The notes beneath the pieces were generated by a model. That model was not told where the DNA came from. It saw nothing but the letters and a program-made list of their open reading frames with translations, and did not search any database. Below, in pieces: positions 22,577 through 31,693 of a stretch of 32,000 nucleotides of DNA. This stretch comes from Archaeoglobus fulgidus DSM 4304. Its GTDB lineage: Archaea > Halobacteriota > Archaeoglobi > Archaeoglobales > Archaeoglobaceae. The first letter of the stretch is position 1. Each line of letters starts with the position of its first letter. The stretch is taken from the NCBI RefSeq assembly GCF_000008665.1, contig NC_000917.1, forward strand, positions 600,001 through 632,000. Direction: 5' to 3'. The position numbers and the translations under genes are program-made.

Positions 22577-22591
22577 AGTTTGTCTTTAAGC

Positions 22592-24349
22592 ATGCCGATT
22601 ATCACTTTCCTTCCTTCAGGCAAGCGTGCTGAGGTTGATGAAGGTAAAACCATTCTCTCTGCTGCTCAGGAAATTGGTGAAGGAATTAGAAGCTTATGCG
22701 GCGGAAAAGGGAGTTGTGGTAAGTGTTTAGTGGTGGTAAGGAAGGGAGATGTGGAGATTTTAAGTGAGGAGGCTCACGAGAAGTTTGTCAGGGAAAAGGG
22801 ATACTACCTCGCTTGCCAGACTGCAGTCAAAGGTGATGTTGAGGTCTTCATTCCTCCTGAATCGAGGCTGGAAAGGCAGCAAATCCTCAAGGACTTCTTC
22901 ATCTCCTCCAAAGAGTTCAACCCGGTTGTGAAGGTGGAGTTCTGCAGCGACGCTTTCCTTCCTGAAGTTTTGTCGCAGAAGGGGTTGAGGCTTGCTTGCA
23001 GCACAGACGTGGAGGAGGGCGATTTCGGGCTTGTTGTGAGGGGTAAGGAGGTTATCGATGTCCTTCCCGACGAGAAAGCCTTTGGGCTGGCTGTTGATGT
23101 GGGCACAACGACTATTGTAGCAGCTCTTGTGGATTTGAAGGATGGGAAGGTGGTGAATGTAGCATCAGACTACAACGGGCAGATTATTTACGGTGAGGAG
23201 GTGCTCAGCAGGGTTGAGTTCGCAAGAAGCAGGAAGGATGGTGTTGAGGTTCTGCAGAGGGCTGTGGTGGAGTCGATAAACAAGCTCATTGACAAACTTC
23301 TGGAGGGCTACGCAACGCCTGACAGAATCTATGATGTTGTTGCCGCAGGAAATACAATAATGACCCACTTTCTGGTGGGGAAGGACGTGGAGTACCTTTT
23401 CTCCTCTCCCGATGTAAAAGTAGAAAGGGAGGGTTTTGTAGTAAATGCCTCAGAAATTGGATTGAAGGTGAACAGCAACGCCGAGCTCTTCTGCCTGCCT
23501 CCAGTGGGCAGATTTGTTGGCGGTGACATTGTTGGCGACATTCTCGCCTCAAGAATTGTCGATTCTGCCACCATTTCGCTGATGGTTGACCTCGGAACCA
23601 ATGGGGAGATTGTTGTGGGGAGTGAGGGCTGGGCAATGGCGACGAGCGTGGCGAGCGGGCCGGCCTTTGAGGGCTACGAAATCAAGCACGGAAGCAGGGC
23701 GGTTGAAGGGGCGATAGACCACGTTGAAATTGAGGGCGAGGAGGTGAGGTACACTGTAATTGGCAATGGAAAGCCGAGGAGCATTTGTGGTAGTGGGCTA
23801 ATTGACCTGATGGCGGAGATGTTCAAGAACGGCATTCTCGACGCTACCGGGGCGATGAACAAAAAGCATCCGAGAGTTAGGAGGGGAGAGGATGGCTACG
23901 AATTTGTTGTGGTTGAGGCTGAAAAGTCCGCTACAGCCAAAGACATCGTTTTCACCGAAAAGGATGTCGAAACTTTGCTTAAATCCAAAGCTGCGGTGTG
24001 TGCGGGGATAGCGGTGCTGATAAAGAAAGCTGGTCTGGGACTTGAGGATATAGACGAGTTTTACATTGCGGGAGCCTTTGGATACTACATAAACTTTGAT
24101 AATGCCGTTACAATTGGCTTATTCCCCGAACTGAAAGCGGAGGTAAAGCAGATAGGCAACGGCTCACTTGCTGGAGCATACCTCGCCCTCGTGTCGGAGA
24201 GAAAAAGGAAGCTTGCAGAGACAATTGCAAACGCCTTCGCCTACTTTGACCTCTCAACGGATGCGGACTTTGTTGAGGAATACAGGGCTGCTCTCTCACT
24301 TCCGGGAAGGCCTGAACTCTTTCCCGAAACCTACGCAAAGTATGTATGA
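22592..24349 (+). CDS. RACo-like corrinoid-protein reductive activase family protein (N-terminal [2Fe-2S] ferredoxin plus ASKHA/DUF4445 ATPase domain)
   Basis: The ATG at 22592 gives MPIITFLPSGKRAEVDEGKTILSAA. The plant-type 2Fe-2S motif is CGGKGSCGKC...LACQT. ASKHA-like phosphate motifs are GLAVDVGTTTIV, MVDLGTNGEIV and AGAFG. Confidence 0.8.
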   Translation: MPIITFLPSGKRAEVDEGKTILSAAQEIGEGIRSLCGGKGSCGKCLVVVRKGDVEILSEEAHEKFVREKGYYLACQTAVKGDVEVFIPPESRLERQQILKDFFISSKEFNPVVKVEFCSDAFLPEVLSQKGLRLACSTDVEEGDFGLVVRGKEVIDVLPDEKAFGLAVDVGTTTIVAALVDLKDGKVVNVASDYNGQIIYGEEVLSRVEFARSRKDGVEVLQRAVVESINKLIDKLLEGYATPDRIYDVVAAGNTIMTHFLVGKDVEYLFSSPDVKVEREGFVVNASEIGLKVNSNAELFCLPPVGRFVGGDIVGDILASRIVDSATISLMVDLGTNGEIVVGSEGWAMATSVASGPAFEGYEIKHGSRAVEGAIDHVEIEGEEVRYTVIGNGKPRSICGSGLIDLMAEMFKNGILDATGAMNKKHPRVRRGEDGYEFVVVEAEKSATAKDIVFTEKDVETLLKSKAAVCAGIAVLIKKAGLGLEDIDEFYIAGAFGYYINFDNAVTIGLFPELKAEVKQIGNGSLAGAYLALVSERKRKLAETIANAFAYFDLSTDADFVEEYRAALSLPGRPELFPETYAKYV

Positions 24350-25287
24350 AAGCGCTATACTGGCTGCTTATCGGCTTCCTATCCTCAACTCTTGCAGAAG
24401 TGCTCTCATCATCCCATCCTGCAGGTGTGTTTGATGCATGGGGAATTGGGGTGATTTTTCCTCTCTACTCCCTCCACGCTCTCGTTCTGGGTGGCTGGCT
24501 TTTCCGGCTGGGTGTGAACTGGCAGAGGCTCTTTCTTTTCGGCTGCGTTTTCGGGATGTATGAGGCCTACATCACAAAGGTTCTCTGGAACCCCTACTGG
24601 GGGCCAGACGCCTTCCAGTTTCTGGGAATCTACTGGTTTCAGTTTGCTGTTCTCGTATTCTTCTGGCATCCAATTTTTGCCTTCATTTTACCTCTGCTGA
24701 TTGCAGAGTACATCTACACAAGCTCAAACACTCTGCTGAACGCAGCAAAGCAGTTTCCACTGATGCAAAAAGCTGGAAAGAAGTTTGCCCTGCTTTTAGC
24801 AGCATTGGCCGGACTCAACCAGTCAGTCAACACTCCTCCGTCTATGTTTTGGGTTGCTCTGCTGAGCTTCTTCACCATTCTAACCCCATCCTTCCTGCTG
24901 GAAAAGAGGAAGATTGAGGATATAATGCCCAGCGGTAGGGTTTTGAAGTTGCTAACCTTCGCCCTGATAATCCTCTACCTTTTCTGGACCTTTGCCCTGA
25001 GATTCGACAAAATGGGAAGCTTTTCGGGCCAGCTGGTCGTCTGGCTTTTCTACCTGCTTCTCTTCTATCTCATAATAAACATCAAAAGCTGTAAACCTGA
25101 GAGCAAGACAAGCGAGAAAAAAGGTGAGAGAAGATTTTTTGCTGCCTGCTTCCTCGTCTATCTGACTGCCTTCCTTATCACCTCCTCATTCAAGGCCTTT
25201 CCTGCTGCAATGCTTTTCCTTCTTGCAGGAACTGCCTACGGCACCATTGTTTTTGCCTCGATTCTAATCAAATTCTTGATGAGATGA
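24346..25287 (+). CDS. Polytopic integral membrane protein, unknown function
   Basis: 313 aa with about 8 hydrophobic helices. It is rich in aromatic residues (WNPYWGPDAFQFLGIYWFQFAVLVFFWHP). It overlaps the upstream stop by ATGA. Confidence 0.7.
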   Translation: MKALYWLLIGFLSSTLAEVLSSSHPAGVFDAWGIGVIFPLYSLHALVLGGWLFRLGVNWQRLFLFGCVFGMYEAYITKVLWNPYWGPDAFQFLGIYWFQFAVLVFFWHPIFAFILPLLIAEYIYTSSNTLLNAAKQFPLMQKAGKKFALLLAALAGLNQSVNTPPSMFWVALLSFFTILTPSFLLEKRKIEDIMPSGRVLKLLTFALIILYLFWTFALRFDKMGSFSGQLVVWLFYLLLFYLIINIKSCKPESKTSEKKGERRFFAACFLVYLTAFLITSSFKAFPAAMLFLLAGTAYGTIVFASILIKFLMR

Positions 25288-27201
25288 CTTTAAAAACCAG
25301 CTCAGCTCCTCCCACGCTTTATCGAGCAGTTTTCTGTAGTATCTGACGTCAAAATACGAGTGGTTCCTCACACTGACGACCTTCCTCTTGGAGTCAGCAA
25401 CCACGTATTCCACAACCATCCCTGGCTTGATTTCAATTCCTGCCTTTCTGTACTCTCTGATTGCCGAAGATTCCAGCAGCTTTTTTCCGTATTCCGCCTT
25501 TCCAACAACCTTTCTGATAATCATTTCCTCAGGCCTCGCCCTTCTTATGTTCTCGGCATATCTCTCGTAAATCCGTCTCAGCTCGGGGAAAAGCCTGAGA
25601 AGCTCGCCAGCGCTTCTTGCTCTTTTCATAACATCAAAGCACTCCCTCTGCATTCTTTTCACGTACTCCGGTACGTCACGCCTTCTAGCCATAACCCCCC
25701 TGAGCTTCATCTCTCCGCTGCTCAGCCTGCCGTAATAGCGGTTGTACGCTCCACTGCCGTCCTTCATCGGAAGAAAGACTATCCAGTCGAACTTCTCCAC
25801 CTCGGTCAGCAGGCCCGTTTCCTCCTCAACCCTCGCCTGGAAGCTGCCGATGTCTTCACCCCTAACCCACAAGCAGTCAACTATCCCGTGAAGAACCTTA
25901 AAGCCTAGCTCCTCCGCAATTTCCTTTGTTTTTATAAGAATTTCTCTTCCGATTCTGTTTATCTCCTCGTGAACCTCTATTCTGCCGAACTTGGCGTTTC
26001 TGTAGCCGGTGTAGCCGAAGCAAGTGACGAGCATCCACTTGAGAATTGAGTCCACTCCCGCATAGCGGGAATCCTTCCTCTTAAGGCTCTTCGTCTTTAT
26101 CCTCAGCCTGAGAAGGGGCTCGAGCACCTCCGCCAGGAATCCCCTCCCCTCCTTTCCGATGCTCTCTGGTGAGAGATTGTGCTTCACAATTATCGACGGA
26201 TACATGGACGTGAAGTCGAGCTGCCAGACGTTCTCGTAAATTCCGGGTTCGGGCTGGAAAATCATCCCGCCTCTGTCCGAGAATCTCAGCTCCTCGATGC
26301 TCTTAACCCTCTCAGCGTCGCTCTTTCTGAATGGCACCGCAATGCCCCTCATCAGCGCCTCAAAGACCTCGTAAAGCGAGATGAGCGAGCCGGGTGTGAT
26401 TCGGGATGCGTGGTTTGGGGATATGGCGGATATCCTTGAGGCGAGTAGAACTCCCCTAAGCCCACCCTCCCTGAAGTTGAAGGAGTTCGAGTCTATGAGA
26501 ACTCTTCCCTCCGGTATCAGGGCCTGCTTTCTGTATCTCGCCCTGCCGTAGCTCCAGTAAACCTTCTGAGAGAGCTTCCGAAATCTTCCGGTTCTGCTCA
26601 TCGCCTTCAAGCCGAGATGCTGCATCCAGAAATCCGCATCCTCCATCACAACGATGTCGGGATTCATGTCCTCCATCGCACCGGAAAGCTCCTCTAACAG
26701 CTCTTTCTCGCTGCCCTCAATTCTCTTCCCGTTTATGCTCATCTCCTCGACCTCGGGTTTGAAGACATCTCCCTTAACACCCACCCTTAGAACTTCAAAC
26801 GGCAGGTCGAAGTCAGCCTCAAACCTTTCCGAAACGTCTTCGAGAACGTGAGAGCACGGAAAAATCCTTTTTCTGGCCATGAATTTCTGCTCCAGCCTAA
26901 CGTCAACGTTGAAGAGCTTAGCATCCTTTGCCTGCCTCTCTATCATCTCCGCAACCTTCCTCCCGGCGTAAATTCTGTATCCTTCAATTTCACCGTAAAT
27001 TGTTTTGAAAGTGCACTCCTCAACTTTGTAGCGAGTTTCCAGAGCCTCTAAAAGCTCAACGTGGAGAGCTCTGTCGGGAAAATGCAGAAAAAAGTAATTT
27101 TCAAACCTGAAACTTCTCCTGACAACTTTTCCGTTCTCCTTCTTGATCCAGAGGTCAATCCCCCTTCCCGAAGGCGCGCAGTCCAGTATCCACATTTCCA
27201 T
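25264..27201 (-). CDS. Family B DNA polymerase homolog with degenerate exonuclease motifs and degenerate motif C (probable inactivated PolB, PolB2-like)
   Basis: ~645 aa. Motif A DFTSMYPSII (26188-26217) is intact. Motif B is KWMLVTCFG rather than Kx3NSxYG. At the YxDTDS position it reads LHGIVDCL (25864-25899). No ExoI DxE was recognised, and the ExoII region is NPDIVVMEDADFWMQHL. Confidence 0.85.
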   Translation of the reverse strand: MEMWILDCAPSGRGIDLWIKKENGKVVRRSFRFENYFFLHFPDRALHVELLEALETRYKVEECTFKTIYGEIEGYRIYAGRKVAEMIERQAKDAKLFNVDVRLEQKFMARKRIFPCSHVLEDVSERFEADFDLPFEVLRVGVKGDVFKPEVEEMSINGKRIEGSEKELLEELSGAMEDMNPDIVVMEDADFWMQHLGLKAMSRTGRFRKLSQKVYWSYGRARYRKQALIPEGRVLIDSNSFNFREGGLRGVLLASRISAISPNHASRITPGSLISLYEVFEALMRGIAVPFRKSDAERVKSIEELRFSDRGGMIFQPEPGIYENVWQLDFTSMYPSIIVKHNLSPESIGKEGRGFLAEVLEPLLRLRIKTKSLKRKDSRYAGVDSILKWMLVTCFGYTGYRNAKFGRIEVHEEINRIGREILIKTKEIAEELGFKVLHGIVDCLWVRGEDIGSFQARVEEETGLLTEVEKFDWIVFLPMKDGSGAYNRYYGRLSSGEMKLRGVMARRRDVPEYVKRMQRECFDVMKRARSAGELLRLFPELRRIYERYAENIRRARPEEMIIRKVVGKAEYGKKLLESSAIREYRKAGIEIKPGMVVEYVVADSKRKVVSVRNHSYFDVRYYRKLLDKAWEELSWFLKSSHQEFD

Positions 27202-27415
27202 CAAGCTCCTTCAGGAGCTCAACAAGCACGGAGAAGATCGCCGCTTCCAGTGGGTCATCGAAGGTGTAAAACGCCTCGCTGCTGTGCTTCCTGACCATGC
27301 CGGCAAGCTTTATGGCGTAAAGGCTTTCCTCCTTCTTCATAGCCTTTGCAGTCCTCTCCCACCGCTCTGCAATCCTCTTTACCCCCATTCTAACGCTTGA
27401 AACGCTCCTTCCCAT
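27155..27415 (-). CDS. Small hypothetical protein (86 aa) between the RecA-like and PolB-like genes
   Basis: Its ATG follows the upstream stop directly (TGAATG), and its 3' end overlaps the PolB-like start by 47 nt. The helical, charged sequence looks more protein-like than the opposite-strand ORFs. No family recognised. Confidence 0.45.
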   Translation of the reverse strand: MGRSVSSVRMGVKRIAERWERTAKAMKKEESLYAIKLAGMVRKHSSEAFYTFDDPLEAAIFSVLVELLKELDGNVDTGLRAFGKGD

Positions 27416-27988
27416 TCAGAACACCTCCAGCGTGAGCTGTCCAACCATCTTCGGATAGAAGCGCTGGTTTATTCCCTTCTCATCAACTTCCGCTATGAAG
27501 TACCCACCCTCCTCAGCCTCAACGAGGATGTAGCGGTCCGCGAGCGTGGTTAGAAAGTCAAAGATTCTGTCTCGATTGGTTGTGAAGTAAACGACCGTTC
27601 TGTCCCTCCCTATTTGCCTCAGAAGCATTACGAAGTCCTCAAGGGTGTGGAAATCGCAGTCCTCAAAGAGTAGTGCGTCGTGCTCGATGAATATCATGTC
27701 CTGATAGGCGTTGAGGAGAATCTCTATTAGCTGGTGAATTGTAAAGCCTCTCCTCACCCTGAAGTTCCCCCTGATACCATCCAGAGCCTTTGAGCTGTTT
27801 CCACACACGTATAGCGCTGGAAATCTGCTTCTGTAGCCGTTCAAAAAGTCAAGGCACACTTCCAACGGTGCGGCTACAGCGTTGAACCCTCCATACACCT
27901 CAACCGAAAGTACCTCAATCATAGTAGGTAATGCTCCAAGGTCAATATAAACTTCGACCCCCGGATGCAAGTGAAAAGGATTATACAT
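27416..27988 (-). CDS. Hypothetical protein, possibly a RecA/KaiC-fold domain lacking the P-loop GK[ST]
   Basis: 190 aa with an AAGGAG RBS ~8 nt upstream. By-eye alignment to the KaiC/RadB pattern: VEVYGGFNAVAAP at the Walker A position, ALYVCGNSS, the Walker-B-like DMIFIEHDALLF, TVVYFTTN and ADRYILVE. The fold assignment is inference. Confidence 0.55.
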   Translation of the reverse strand: MYNPFHLHPGVEVYIDLGALPTMIEVLSVEVYGGFNAVAAPLEVCLDFLNGYRSRFPALYVCGNSSKALDGIRGNFRVRRGFTIHQLIEILLNAYQDMIFIEHDALLFEDCDFHTLEDFVMLLRQIGRDRTVVYFTTNRDRIFDFLTTLADRYILVEAEEGGYFIAEVDEKGINQRFYPKMVGQLTLEVF

Positions 27989-28009
27989 ATTAACGTCTCC
28001 TTTACATTA

Positions 28010-29095
28010 ATGCTCTCGTGGGATGAGACGCTCTTCAAAAATCCGGAGGTCTTCGACCCTGACTACATTCCGGACGAGTTGCTGTTCAGGGACGGCCAGA
28101 TCAGGCAGCTTGTGTCGTGCATAAAGCCAGCAATGCTCAACTCGTCCCCGATTAACGCATTCTGCCTCGGACCGCCGTCAACGGGAAAGACCTCGACGAT
28201 AAGGTACGTTCTCAGAGAAGCTGAGAGAGAAACGGGGCTGCTTTACTCCTACATACGAATCCCGAGGTTCAAGGAGCCCTACAAAGTCTTCTCCAAAATT
28301 TTTCAGGACGTTCTGGGACAGCAGTCCCCGCCATCCGGGATAAGCAAAACGGTTTTGATGGACAGAGTCTGGAGCAACCTTGACGAGCCCCTTTTGGTCG
28401 TTCTCGACGACATAAACTTCCTCGGAAAGAATTACGCCAACGAGATTCTTTACGAAATCCTGAAGGCTCCAGACGAGTACGGAGTTAAGGTGGGAATAGT
28501 TGCAGCAGCCACCGATGTAAAGTTCCCCCTGCTACTCGACCCCTTCGTGGGGGCATCGTTCCACTACATGGAGATACACTACCCCTCGTACGGCTATGCG
28601 GAGATTGAGGGAATTTTGAGGAAAAGGGTCGAGCACGGATTTTACGAAGGGGTTTTCGATGACGGGGCATTCAGAAGAGTTGTTGAGCTCGCATACAGGG
28701 CGAGTGATGTCAGGTACGGAATATACCTCCTAAAGGCTGCGGGAATGAACGCGGAGAGCAGGGGGAGCAGAAAGGTTGAGGAGAGGGACGTTGAGGTCGC
28801 CCACGCCGGAGAGTCCCTTTCATTCATAGCAAAGATTCTCACGGCCCTTAACAGCGAGGAGAGGGCAGTTCTCAGAATGATATACTCCCAGAACGCAATT
28901 TCAACCGGCGACCTTTACGAGCAGGTGTGCAGCGAAATTAAGATGAGCTACAGAAAGTACTACAACATCCTCGAAAAGCTCGAAAGGCTGAAGCTGATTG
29001 AAATCTCCTTCGGAGAAAAGGGGAGAGGCAAGACGAGATATGTGCAGGGAAAATACGATGCAGAGGTTGTTGATAGGGCGATGCAGCTGATTTAG
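28010..29095 (+). CDS. cdc6: Orc1/Cdc6 family protein (divergent paralog)
   Basis: The ATG at 28010 gives MLSWDETLFKNPEVFDPDYIPDELLFRDGQI. Walker A is GPPSTGKTS. Walker B is VVLDDINFL (DD rather than DE). The C-terminal winged helix is STGDLYEQV...YYNILEKLERLKLIE..GEKGRGKTRYV. Confidence 0.9.
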   Translation: MLSWDETLFKNPEVFDPDYIPDELLFRDGQIRQLVSCIKPAMLNSSPINAFCLGPPSTGKTSTIRYVLREAERETGLLYSYIRIPRFKEPYKVFSKIFQDVLGQQSPPSGISKTVLMDRVWSNLDEPLLVVLDDINFLGKNYANEILYEILKAPDEYGVKVGIVAAATDVKFPLLLDPFVGASFHYMEIHYPSYGYAEIEGILRKRVEHGFYEGVFDDGAFRRVVELAYRASDVRYGIYLLKAAGMNAESRGSRKVEERDVEVAHAGESLSFIAKILTALNSEERAVLRMIYSQNAISTGDLYEQVCSEIKMSYRKYYNILEKLERLKLIEISFGEKGRGKTRYVQGKYDAEVVDRAMQLI

Positions 29096-29170: not shown

Positions 29171-29977
<807 letters not shown>

Positions 29978-29982
29978 GGGTT

Positions 29983-30168
29983 ATGGACGTGCTCGAGTAT
30001 TTGCTTGTTTTGCTGCTGGTCATCAGCATAGCTCTGAACCTGCTGCTCCTAAAAAAAGTGAGAGAATTAAACAGAGAATTGCGCGAGGTCGGGGCAAGAG
30101 TGAGCGTGACGAAGGAGGAGCTTACCGCAATCAGGTCGAGACTTGAGAGGATGAAGGGTGAGCTTTAA
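29983..30168 (+). CDS. Small single-pass membrane protein with a cytoplasmic coiled coil, coupled to minD
   Basis: 61 aa from the ATG at 29983; a GTG at 29974 would overlap the minD stop as GTGA. It has the TM helix [21 protein letters not shown] followed by [35 protein letters not shown]. Confidence 0.5.
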
Positions 30169-30182
30169 AATCGGCGTTTGAA

Positions 30183-30398
30183 TCAGCCGAGAACCTCAAG
30201 AACTCCTTCACACATTTTTATGTTCATGAGGTAATCATCCAAGGCGGAGAGAAGAGTTCCGATTTTCTCAACCCTGACCTCTATCACGATGCGGTTATCA
30301 GCCCAGCAGCTGCACCACTCGGGGTCGTCTGGCTTGAGAGCCTTCACAACAGCCTCAGGGTCTTTGGATTCTACTTCTAAGCGAGCATGGCACAGCAA
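30183..30398 (-). CDS. pcc1: Pcc1-like KEOPS subunit
   Basis: 71 aa with a TTG start overlapping the upstream gene by 22 nt. The pattern ARLEVES.DPEAVVKALKPDD....NRIVIEVRVEKIGTLLSALDDYLMNIKMCEGVLE resembles archaeal Pcc1 (A..v..al.pe...l.i...a.d...LR...nsylrwi). Confidence 0.55.
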   Translation of the reverse strand: MLCHARLEVESKDPEAVVKALKPDDPEWCSCWADNRIVIEVRVEKIGTLLSALDDYLMNIKMCEGVLEVLG

Positions 30399-31693
30399 AG
30401 CCTGTCAACCTCCTTCAGAAACTCTTCGACTTTATCCGGCGTGATGTTCGCTCCCGCTGCAACCCTGTGCCCCCCTCCTCTTCCCCCAACCTTCTCGGCT
30501 GCAAGCCTCATTACTTCCGCAAGGTCAACTCTCTCAGCCAGAGCCTCGTTAGTTCTCGCGGAAACTTTCGCGTACTCATTCTTGATGTTGACGACGATCA
30601 GGGGTTTGTCTGTGAAAACGTAGCGGGAAAATATGGTCGCTATCGGACTCGCGGAGAGCCCGTTCTCCATAACCAGATACCTTATGCAGAAGCCTTCTTT
30701 AACCTCATTTCTCCATTTTTTGAGCTCTTCAAGAGTCTGAATGACGTATTCGTTGTTTATCCTGATGGCTCTGTTCATCGCCTCCACGTCTCCGAGAAGC
30801 ATGGCTAAGGCCGTGCTCATAGCCCCAATCCTCCCGCAGGAGTTTACAACATCGACAGCCGTAACAGCATTCTTGATGAGCAGGTTTTTCAGAATCAGCC
30901 TTTTTCCAACGATTTGGCTGAATATGCCCGTGTAGGCATTCATCTTTAGAAGTCTCAGCACTATCGCGTCAGCGAGTCGCCTGATCTCCTCGTCGCTAAG
31001 CTCATCAAACTCCTTGTCTCCATCGAGCCTCGCCTTCTCAAGAAACTCCTCAAGCTCCTCCTCCTTTCCGTAGAAGTCGAGAAACGGCTCCAGGCTCTGG
31101 ACCAGCACGTCGCGCAGCTTCCCCGACGGGAGGCTCACCCCTTTTCTCTCCTCAACCACTCCAGCCTCCAAACCGTTTCTCAGAATCTCCTCGTTACCCC
31201 CAACCATCCTCTGCTTGTCTCCGAGGGCGCCGATCAAAGCTACAGATGCCAGCTCCCTGTTCCTCCCGAGCTCGTTGGCAAAGAAGTAGCATACGCCGCT
31301 TGCCGATAGTTCAAAGGTTCCGTCCATGCCCACGAGGTGGGGGTTGACGTGGGCAAGATTCCTCTTCGGCCTTATCTCCCCGTTGGGGATGTGGTGGTCT
31401 AGTATGACAACATCCGTGTCAACCTGCGAGATTAAATCAGCATAACCACTCCCCATATCGGCGAAGAGCAGAAGCTCTCCCTGCTCGTACTCAAAGGGCT
31501 CGTTCAGACCCTTCAGAAAAGTGATGTGAAAGGCCTTACCCGCCTTTAGGAGGGCTTTGGCTATGATCGCACCAGCTGAGATTCCATCTGCATCATGGTG
31601 TGTGTATATTCTGATGAAGTCGTGCCTTGCAACGAGGTCGGCAGCCCTCCTTGCCCTCTCCCTCAGCAGGTTAATTGCCGAGCCCGAACTCAT
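30377..31693 (-). CDS. RecJ-like DHH/DHHA1 phosphoesterase (archaeal RecJ/Cdc45/GAN-family candidate)
   Basis: 438 aa with the DHH motifs YTHHDADGISAG, FADMGSG and VILDHHIP, plus the DHHA1 motif GGRGGGHRVAAG. Confidence 0.8.
   Translation of the reverse strand: MSSGSAINLLRERARRAADLVARHDFIRIYTHHDADGISAGAIIAKALLKAGKAFHITFLKGLNEPFEYEQGELLLFADMGSGYADLISQVDTDVVILDHHIPNGEIRPKRNLAHVNPHLVGMDGTFELSASGVCYFFANELGRNRELASVALIGALGDKQRMVGGNEEILRNGLEAGVVEERKGVSLPSGKLRDVLVQSLEPFLDFYGKEEELEEFLEKARLDGDKEFDELSDEEIRRLADAIVLRLLKMNAYTGIFSQIVGKRLILKNLLIKNAVTAVDVVNSCGRIGAMSTALAMLLGDVEAMNRAIRINNEYVIQTLEELKKWRNEVKEGFCIRYLVMENGLSASPIATIFSRYVFTDKPLIVVNIKNEYAKVSARTNEALAERVDLAEVMRLAAEKVGGRGGGHRVAAGANITPDKVEEFLKEVDRLCCAMLA

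Follow-up and report, generated by a model that had tools for sequence, protein, structure and literature searches.

We analyzed a 32,000-nucleotide stretch of the Archaeoglobus fulgidus DSM 4304 genome (NC_000917.1, positions 600,001 to 632,000; hereafter the window, to which all coordinates refer), in which positions 25264-29095 carry a gene for an Orc1/Cdc6 paralog (Orc) set head-to-head with genes for a RecA-like protein, a small protein, and a B-family DNA polymerase of the PolB2 type. Taken as a whole, this region is very probably the A. fulgidus version of a locus known from the literature as the PolB2 'mutasome'. An earlier note on this DNA had presented the four genes as an undescribed module and knew of no description of the two proteins encoded upstream of the polymerase; both statements have to be withdrawn, because the operon of PolB2, arCOG07300 and an inactivated RadA was described in 2014, together with an Orc neighbor in many euryarchaea (PMC4104785), and again in 2025 with the A. 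fulgidus locus included (PMC11791011). In the first of these papers, Makarova, Krupovic, and Koonin discussed both a repair role and a role in replication initiation, and assigned the PolB2-linked Orcs to 'arORC2' (PMC4104785). In the second, Timinskas, Timinskas, and Venclovas renamed the partners iRadA and PPB2, modeled PolB2, iRadA and three copies of PPB2 as a heteropentameric translesion 'mutasome' for 40 species, and found orc1/cdc6 (in archaea) and lexA (in bacteria) enriched around polB2, their Supplementary Table S1 counting 364 orc1/cdc6 hits in the ±5 genes around 1823 operons (PMC11791011).

The correspondence with the published entries is exact. The supplement of the 2025 paper contains a row for A. 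fulgidus DSM 4304 (PolB2 WP_010878196.1, iRadA WP_048064269.1, PPB2 WP_048064268.1) and one for strain DSM 8774 (AIG97571/73/72), gives the neighborhood as orc1/cdc6, iRadA, PPB2, PolB2 (group 1a, motif IVD), and includes an A. fulgidus pentamer model (PMC11791011). The iRadA protein of the window is identical to the supplement sequence at 168 of 168 residues, PolB2 is identical over all 399 residues printed there (its first 399), and PPB2 is an exact match to AIG97572.1, the PPB2 of the supplement; the Orc is likewise an exact match to AIG97574.1, and the DSM 4304 protein is UniProt O29563, 'ORC1-type DNA replication protein 2'. Because of this sequence identity with published A. fulgidus entries, what the window holds is a rediscovery: the module is already known, including for A. 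fulgidus, and is not new. With the operon, the predicted heteropentamer and the orc1/cdc6 association all in print, the locus carries little weight as a discovery. A literature search by the locus tags AF0693-AF0695 returned only unrelated accession numbers.

The four open reading frames (ORFs) are all present in 25264-29095, and the gene assignments first made for them (an Orc1/Cdc6 paralog, a RecA-like protein lacking a P-loop, a small partner and a PolB2-type polymerase) agree with profiles, fold and motifs, but both divergent starts had been over-extended. As originally listed, the 190-residue iRadA ORF (27416-27988, minus strand) and the 376-residue Orc ORF (27965-29095, plus strand) overlap head-to-head by 24 nt. 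This overlap is an artefact of choosing the longest ORF, as homologs and database entries start at M23 of iRadA and at M16 of the Orc. The residue aligned with M23 is the first residue of iRadA homologs outside the close Archaeoglobus group, the nearest database relatives of iRadA are mostly 168 residues long, and RefSeq-type entries for the Orc have 361 residues; gene calling done independently on a Logan contig of 69 kb with identical genes gives 168 residues for iRadA, 361 for the Orc and 86 for PPB2. With the true starts at 27922 and 28010, the genes do not overlap and are separated by a divergent control region of 87 bp (27923..28009, 38% GC), with iRadA at 27416..27922 on the minus strand (168 residues) and orc1/cdc6 at 28010..29095 on the plus strand (361 residues, beginning MLSWDE; AF_0695). 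The iRadA stop codon abuts the ATG of PPB2 (TGAATG), and the 3' end of the PPB2 gene (27155..27415, minus strand, 86 residues) overlaps the start of polB2 by about 41-47 nt. The polymerase gene itself occupies 25264..27201 on the minus strand (643 residues; AF_0693/WP_010878196), having been listed as an ORF of 646 residues at 25264-27204. The arrangement is thereby confirmed as one tight minus-strand operon, iRadA-PPB2-PolB2, from which the Orc1/Cdc6 gene diverges.

The polymerase is recognized by Pfam PF00136 (2.9e-18) and by NCBIfam NF004416 (1029 bits, cut-off 516). The Asp of motif A is kept (LDFTSMYPS), motif B is substituted, and motif C reads HGIVD (IVD at residues 441-443), paired in the alignment with YADTD of Thermococcus PolB. 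The claim of a missing DTD is therefore half right, in that the first Asp of the DxD is replaced and the second is kept. The same IVD motif appears in the A. fulgidus and Natrialba rows of the published supplement, and most PolB2 proteins lack the first Asp (PMC11791011). To call the polymerase inactivated on these grounds, as had been done, is outdated, as Sulfolobus Dpo2, where IID occupies this position, is catalytically active, is induced by damage, extends mismatches and lesions, and is needed for targeted mutagenesis (PMC11791011); two further papers also present it as an active translesion extender induced by damage (PMC8764526, PMC7390963). By analogy with Dpo2, A. fulgidus PolB2 is probably a mismatch and lesion extender too; translesion or mismatch extension and damage-inducible expression of PolB2 are known only for Sulfolobales (PMC11791011, PMC6061795). 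The D(K/R) motif is found as DR at residues 310-311, inside D[RK]GGM[IM]FQ, which is the best-conserved peptide of the PolB2 alignment, and the segment AVPFRKSDAE upstream of it is invariant; the segment before the motif has a modeled role in binding iRadA (PMC11791011). PolB2 aligns to the PolB of Thermococcus/Pyrococcus over residues 259-603 only, residues 1-258 are unaligned to solved PolBs, no Pfam match to an exonuclease domain was obtained, and the protein has 643 residues compared with 773 for solved PolB. This absence of a match points to a 3'-5' exonuclease region that has decayed and has no active site.

The 190-residue ORF of the RecA-like partner had no match in local copies of Pfam or NCBIfam. 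We take its family to be that of inactivated RadA (arCOG07763/04294/08101), and it adjoins PPB2 and PolB2 in the one operon of the window. An AlphaFold2 model built from a 62-sequence alignment (mean predicted local distance difference test score, pLDDT, 89.3; predicted template modeling score, pTM, 0.85) has a disordered tail at residues 162-168, and when it was compared with the PDB using Foldseek, it matched RAD51 paralogs, Rad51, RadA (2zuc), RecA, KaiC and FlaH with probability 1.0 and query-normalized template modeling scores (TMq) of 0.55-0.67, the matches also including the degenerate RecA-like domain of BcsE. The 168-residue protein opens directly at the RecA/RadA core, without the N-terminal helical domain. 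A PDB profile search with the iRadA alignment yielded spurious coiled-coil matches and neither RadA nor RecA, whereas Foldseek did find both of these proteins, and the homology to RadA/RecA is therefore visible at the fold level only; the same lack of a RadA match at the sequence level was reported for arCOG07763 by Makarova et al. (PMC4104785). At the likely P-loop position, G41-N42-x-S44 is invariant and the sequence is GNSS instead of GK[ST], so the missing P-loop is borne out, and at the likely Walker B position, following the strand at 76-80, there is E80-H81-D82 (EHD); both positions were set by motif spacing and the secondary structure of the model, not by residue-level superposition on RadA. 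Read on this model, the residues for ATP binding and hydrolysis appear to be lost. The protein ends in QLTLEVF, a heptapeptide that conforms to QxxLxxF, the pattern for PCNA interaction; Q162 and L165 are invariant, and the segment is probably a tail resembling a PCNA-interacting peptide (PIP) that tethers the complex to PCNA. Published PCNA-binding motifs lie mostly on iRadA, in many members although not in all (PMC11791011).

The 86-residue PPB2 ORF was also without a match in local copies of Pfam or NCBIfam. Its N-terminus, MGRSVSSVR, has both R3 and R9, the MGRS arm is conserved across loci, and the protein contains the conserved motif DDPLEAAxFSVL. An AlphaFold2 model made from the single sequence, with a pLDDT of 60, predicts a helical protein with three helices (residues 5-25, 29-45 and 55-72). 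PPB2 (arCOG07300) is defined in the literature as a helical protein of about 90 residues with an MGR[T/S] arm bearing Arg3 and Arg9, and the MGRT arm, the D(K/R) motif and a contact resembling Rad51 oligomerization have all been described (PMC11791011).

By homology with the published models, PolB2-iRadA-(PPB2)3 would be a multisubunit translesion polymerase. PolB2 would act as its catalytic subunit, exonuclease-dead and with the IVD form of motif C, extending mismatched or damaged primer ends, as suggested by analogy with Dpo2. One iRadA is predicted to bind a loop of PolB2 that resembles the Rad51 oligomerization motif, a PPB2 trimer is predicted to place its MGRS N-terminal arm near the PolB2 active site, and the disordered iRadA tail QLTLEVF may bring the complex to PCNA. 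Expression of both transcription units would then be governed by a regulator bound at a 24-nt element between the two promoters, for which the Orc paralog is the most plausible candidate.

The gene arrangement recurs in other genomes. We assembled 80 PolB2 loci from one-genome-per-species contigs, which were fetched with the PolB2 alignment and span Archaeoglobi, Methanotrichales, Methanomicrobiales, Thermoplasmata and others, and scanned their ORFs with iterated hidden Markov models (HMMs). PPB2 homologs were detected in 55 of the 80 loci and iRadA homologs in 50, for the most part immediately 5' of polB2 and in the same orientation, which argues against chance juxtaposition; many of the loci without them end at a contig edge. 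Nine loci from Methanotrichaceae/Methanoregula (L009, L014, L017, L032, L044, L045, L054, L065 and L077) have 10 kb of upstream sequence and no PPB2 or iRadA nearby, and in one more (L012) the partners are 4 and 8 kb away from polB2; several Methanothrix loci are of these kinds, either without partners close by or with partners at 4-8 kb, and the operon appears to have been dispersed or lost in some lineages. The earlier note had proposed just such a tabulation, extended to an adjacent orc1/cdc6 paralog, as a check on its module: the partners came through it, but an adjacent divergent Orc was confined to Archaeoglobaceae. For the Orc, only first-round HMM matches were trusted, since the iterated model drifted to other AAA+ proteins; a 'second Orc' in L001 turned out to be a RuvB-like/TIP49 protein and a match in L028 to be CDC48. 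The former (L001:11974-13371, minus strand, Archaeoglobus sp. GB_MAG2_100) has 465 residues, scores 435 bits against eukaryotic RuvBL2 structures and lies directly downstream of polB2. The gene is absent at the equivalent position of the window, which holds a membrane protein gene instead.

The corrected gene starts expose a compact bidirectional promoter region. For the iRadA-PPB2-PolB2 operon, a TATA-like box, TTTATATT, is located at 27944..27951 on the minus strand, with its center ~25 nt upstream of the ATG of iRadA, and T[T/C][A/T]TATT is conserved at this position in 8 Archaeoglobaceae loci. A second TATA-like box, TTATACAT, is located at 27981..27988 on the plus strand, with its center ~25 nt upstream of the ATG of orc (28010); here the conserved sequence, in the same number of loci, is ATGT[A/T]TA on the opposite strand. 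The usual distance between TATA box and start site in archaea can serve as a yardstick for leaderless mRNA, and the spacing from each box to its ATG suggests that both transcripts are leaderless or nearly so. Between the two boxes, at 27953..27976 and read on the minus strand, is a 24-nt element, TTTCACTTGCATCCGGGGGTCGAA. A 24-nt window over it is 96% invariant in the 8 loci, compared with 10-40% for flanking coding sequence, although some of the PolB2 proteins encoded there are only ~65% identical. The ends of the element overlap the expected positions of the B recognition element (BRE) of both promoters; since basal promoter elements do not account for the central TTGCATCCGGGGG, we treat the latter as a candidate operator. 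The element has one copy in the window, where zero matches are expected by chance, and in the public collections that we scanned, Archaeoglobaceae copies occur at this locus position only. A metagenome scan for further copies gave 18 matches, four at the same Archaeoglobaceae locus and 14 in unrelated organisms at a chance-like level, so exact matches provide no evidence of a regulon. One metagenome contig (Ga0180302_10001920; L089:4345-4850) has a variant locus in which iRadA is a 48-residue remnant, its N-terminal piece fused to a tail ending in ALEVF, and orc is lost beyond its first codons, but the 24-nt element, PPB2 and PolB2 are spared. The variant reflects either a deletion in nature or faulty assembly. 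The 87-bp control region, its two TATA-like boxes and the 24-nt element are not reported in the accessible portions of the 2025 paper (PMC11791011), and may be new.

Of the two Orc1/Cdc6 paralogs of A. fulgidus, AF_0244 and AF_0695, the Orc of this locus is the second. It scores 470 bits against NF001624 (cut-off 354) and 206 bits against TIGR02928 (cut-off 181), and has Pfam matches to Cdc6_lid, AAA_16/22 and Cdc6_C, with lid and winged-helix domains. Walker A is intact (GPPSTGKT), and Walker B reads VVLDDINF, as the DD first reported there implies. This DD is not unique, as it recurs in at least one further member of the subfamily, the Orc of the Methanoregula locus L070 (VALDDANY), which reaches the NF001626 equivalog threshold and is encoded 8.3 kb from polB2. 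The best PDB matches of the A. fulgidus Orc are 2qby_A (4e-38) and 2v1u (1.5e-33). Against solved structures it scores 135 bits with Sso Cdc6-1, 120 bits with Ape ORC1 and 46 bits with Ape ORC2 (1w5s), a comparison that does not discriminate between the Orc1-1 and Orc1-2 classes because Orc1-1-type structures give the top score for each of the three euryarchaeal Orcs tested.

That an Orc paralog controls a damage-tolerance complex containing PolB2 is a plausible but unproven hypothesis that has already been published, and in Sulfolobus the induction of dpo2 depends on Orc1-2 (PMC6061795). For A. fulgidus, the promoter sequences make it conceivable that both divergent promoters respond to a regulator that binds the 24-nt element, with the neighboring Orc paralog as the leading candidate, although we place this somewhat below an even chance. 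Our estimate is held down because Orc adjacency is restricted to Archaeoglobaceae in our sample and because those Halobacteria Orcs that are linked to PolB2 fall in a different subfamily. A more specific form of the idea is that the element is an Orc operator serving both orc and the mutasome operon, and that this damage switch arose separately from that of Sulfolobus Orc1-2, using a different Orc subfamily (with the DD Walker B) and a different DNA motif; this combined proposal we regard as possible but rather doubtful.

Several observations weigh against reading the locus as an Orc-controlled mutasome. Among the 80 genome loci, a divergent Orc is adjacent only in Archaeoglobaceae: a true Orc diverging from iRadA was found only in the Archaeoglobus loci L001-L003 and, beyond the genomes, in the metagenomic contigs L081, L091 and L098, and no Orc lies within 10 kb in the majority of Methanomicrobiales and Methanotrichales loci. 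The Orc linked to PolB2 on the haloarchaeal plasmid pHMA155 is 24% identical to that of the window, shows the canonical DEID at Walker B and is encoded downstream of PolB2 in the same direction, so PolB2-Orc linkage is not one conserved orthologous pair; since the Archaeoglobus and haloarchaeal plasmid Orcs are not close orthologs, a single model of Orc control over PolB2 may not hold across archaea. The A. fulgidus Orc has Asp at the position of Walker B E154 of S. islandicus Orc1-2 (413 residues), a Glu on which the function of that regulator depends and which serves to switch it off; an E154A mutant was unobtainable, which its authors read as lethality (PMC9738581). The Sulfolobus ANTTTC element was not found on either strand of the 87-bp region, where about 0.3 matches are expected by chance, and the single nearby match falls inside the iRadA coding sequence. 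Finally, the PPB2 model is of low confidence (pLDDT 60). The analogy to Orc1-2 drawn in the earlier note is thus looser than that note suggested, with differences in the Walker B residue, in length (361 compared with 413 residues) and in the DNA motif.

Of the competing explanations, the one that fares best is that the Orc gene is simply a lineage-specific neighbor with no regulatory coupling to the operon, and that some other factor binds the conserved element. We consider this a possibility to be taken seriously, though not a probable one. It draws on the 77 of 80 sampled PolB2 genome loci that have no adjacent Orc, on the modest 364 orc1/cdc6 hits around 1823 operons in the published survey (PMC11791011), on the different subfamily and arrangement of the haloarchaeal PolB2-linked Orcs, and on L089, where degradation of orc and iRadA has left the element, PPB2 and PolB2 in place. 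However, the head-to-head promoters are only 37 bp apart and, in all the Archaeoglobaceae loci that we recovered, have one highly conserved element in common; two independent reports found orc1/cdc6 enriched near polB2 (PMC4104785, PMC11791011), and an Orc1/Cdc6 protein, Orc1-2, does control dpo2 in Sulfolobus (PMC6061795).

It is improbable that the Orc is instead a replication initiator or origin factor, with the polymerase complex serving in an alternative, possibly recombination-dependent, mode of initiation or in the control of origin recognition, as Makarova et al. explicitly raised (PMC4104785). The top structural scores of the Orc are against the initiator-type Sso Cdc6-1 (135 bits) and Ape ORC1 (120 bits, with Ape ORC2 at 46), yet these do not discriminate, as all three euryarchaeal Orcs tested favor Orc1-1-type structures. 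Basic residues of its winged helix align with the arginines of ApeORC1 that contact the origin recognition box (ORB), and the G-run in the 24-nt element gives it a loose likeness to a mini-ORB. We nonetheless rejected an ORB reading of the element: neither TTCC nor GAA, the two cores kept without exception in the ORB and mini-ORB repeats of Pyrococcus (PMC1904270), is present in it. A search of the window for origin features found no ORB cluster, repeat family or AT-rich unwinding element, with ORB-like matches below the chance level, which makes an origin at the orc gene unlikely; the flanks of orc are also short (87 bp upstream and ~90 bp downstream). In addition, a single origin has been reported for A. 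fulgidus (PMC4010727), and Sulfolobus PolB2 is by experiment a damage-induced translesion enzyme (PMC11791011).

An undescribed module of catalytically dead homologs, with PolB2 as a non-enzymatic scaffold, is very hard to credit despite the substituted motifs B and C (IVD), the lost exonuclease domain and the lack of a P-loop in iRadA, as the module is published with A. fulgidus included, PolB2 keeps its Asp in motif A and the second Asp of motif C, and Sulfolobus Dpo2 with IID is active and required for targeted mutagenesis (PMC11791011).

For the preferred reading of the locus, that of a PolB2 mutasome under possible Orc control, the corrected starts, the 87-bp bidirectional region and the candidate operator make Orc regulation of PolB2 outside Sulfolobales directly testable.

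The genes around the locus are of varied kinds. On the polB2 side, a plus-strand gene at 24346-25287 encodes a 313-residue membrane protein that has a precomputed match to PF27245 ('AF_0692') but none in the local copy of Pfam. This gene and polB2 are convergent, sharing 24 nt of coding sequence at their 3' ends (25264-25287). Further out, at 22580-24349 on the plus strand, is a 589-residue protein of the type known as reductive activator of corrinoid proteins (RACo), with a 2Fe-2S ferredoxin domain and an ASKHA domain, which appears unrelated to the PolB2 locus. On the other side, a MinD/ParA-type ATPase (263 residues) is encoded at 29186-30168 on the plus strand, ~90 bp downstream of orc. 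It is followed by a 64-residue ORF that overlaps the ATPase stop codon, encodes a hydrophobic N-terminal stretch and then a charged region, and had no family match. A 438-residue DHH/DHHA1 protein of the RecJ-like phosphoesterase family is encoded at 30377-31693 on the minus strand, 1.3 kb from orc.

When the locus is compared with known systems, it is closest to the group 1a PolB2 mutasome (PMC11791011, PMC4104785), with which it shares gene order, orientation, tight coupling and the orc1/cdc6 neighbor, as well as the IVD motif, D(K/R)GG, the MGR[T/S] arm, the degenerate GN.S P-loop and the PIP-like tail of iRadA; there is no difference of substance. The locus of Haloarcula marismortui plasmid pHMA155 (L100:2762-8479) also has an iRadA-like gene, PPB2 (MGRTNPTYR...), PolB2 (HGIVDSIWV) and an adjacent orc1/cdc6. 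Its order is iRadA-like, PPB2, an extra 130-residue gene of unknown function, PolB2 and then the Orc downstream on the same strand; its iRadA-like protein has 312 residues compared with 168 in A. fulgidus, and its Orc has an affinity for NF001625, whereas that of the window is assigned to NF001624.

The Dpo2 system of Sulfolobus/Saccharolobus (PMC6061795, PMC9738581, PMC7390963, PMC8764526) is likewise built on a PolB2-type polymerase with radA-like and arCOG07300 partners, and there an Orc1/Cdc6-family protein, Orc1-2, is a transcription regulator of dpo2. Orc1-2 is, however, presented in these papers as a global regulator that acts through ANTTTC in many promoters and not as a neighbor of dpo2, whereas the A. 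fulgidus gene is head-to-head with the operon, encodes a protein of 361 residues with a DD Walker B (413 residues and E154 in Orc1-2), and borders a control region without ANTTTC.

The Pol V mutasome of E. coli (UmuD'2C-RecA, under LexA control) is an analogous system. In both, if the PolB2 complex is as modeled, a specialized polymerase is joined to a RecA-family subunit through an oligomerization-like motif, a small oligomeric subunit inserts an N-terminal arm, and the complex binds the sliding clamp; a damage-response regulator gene is associated with the polymerase too, namely LexA for Pol V and likewise in bacterial PolB2 operons. The two differ in that PolB2 is a B-family and Pol V a Y-family polymerase, in that iRadA is apparently ATPase-dead and dedicated to the complex, and in that PPB2, a predicted trimer, has a fold unrelated to that of the Pol V small subunit, with the putative clamp motif carried by iRadA.

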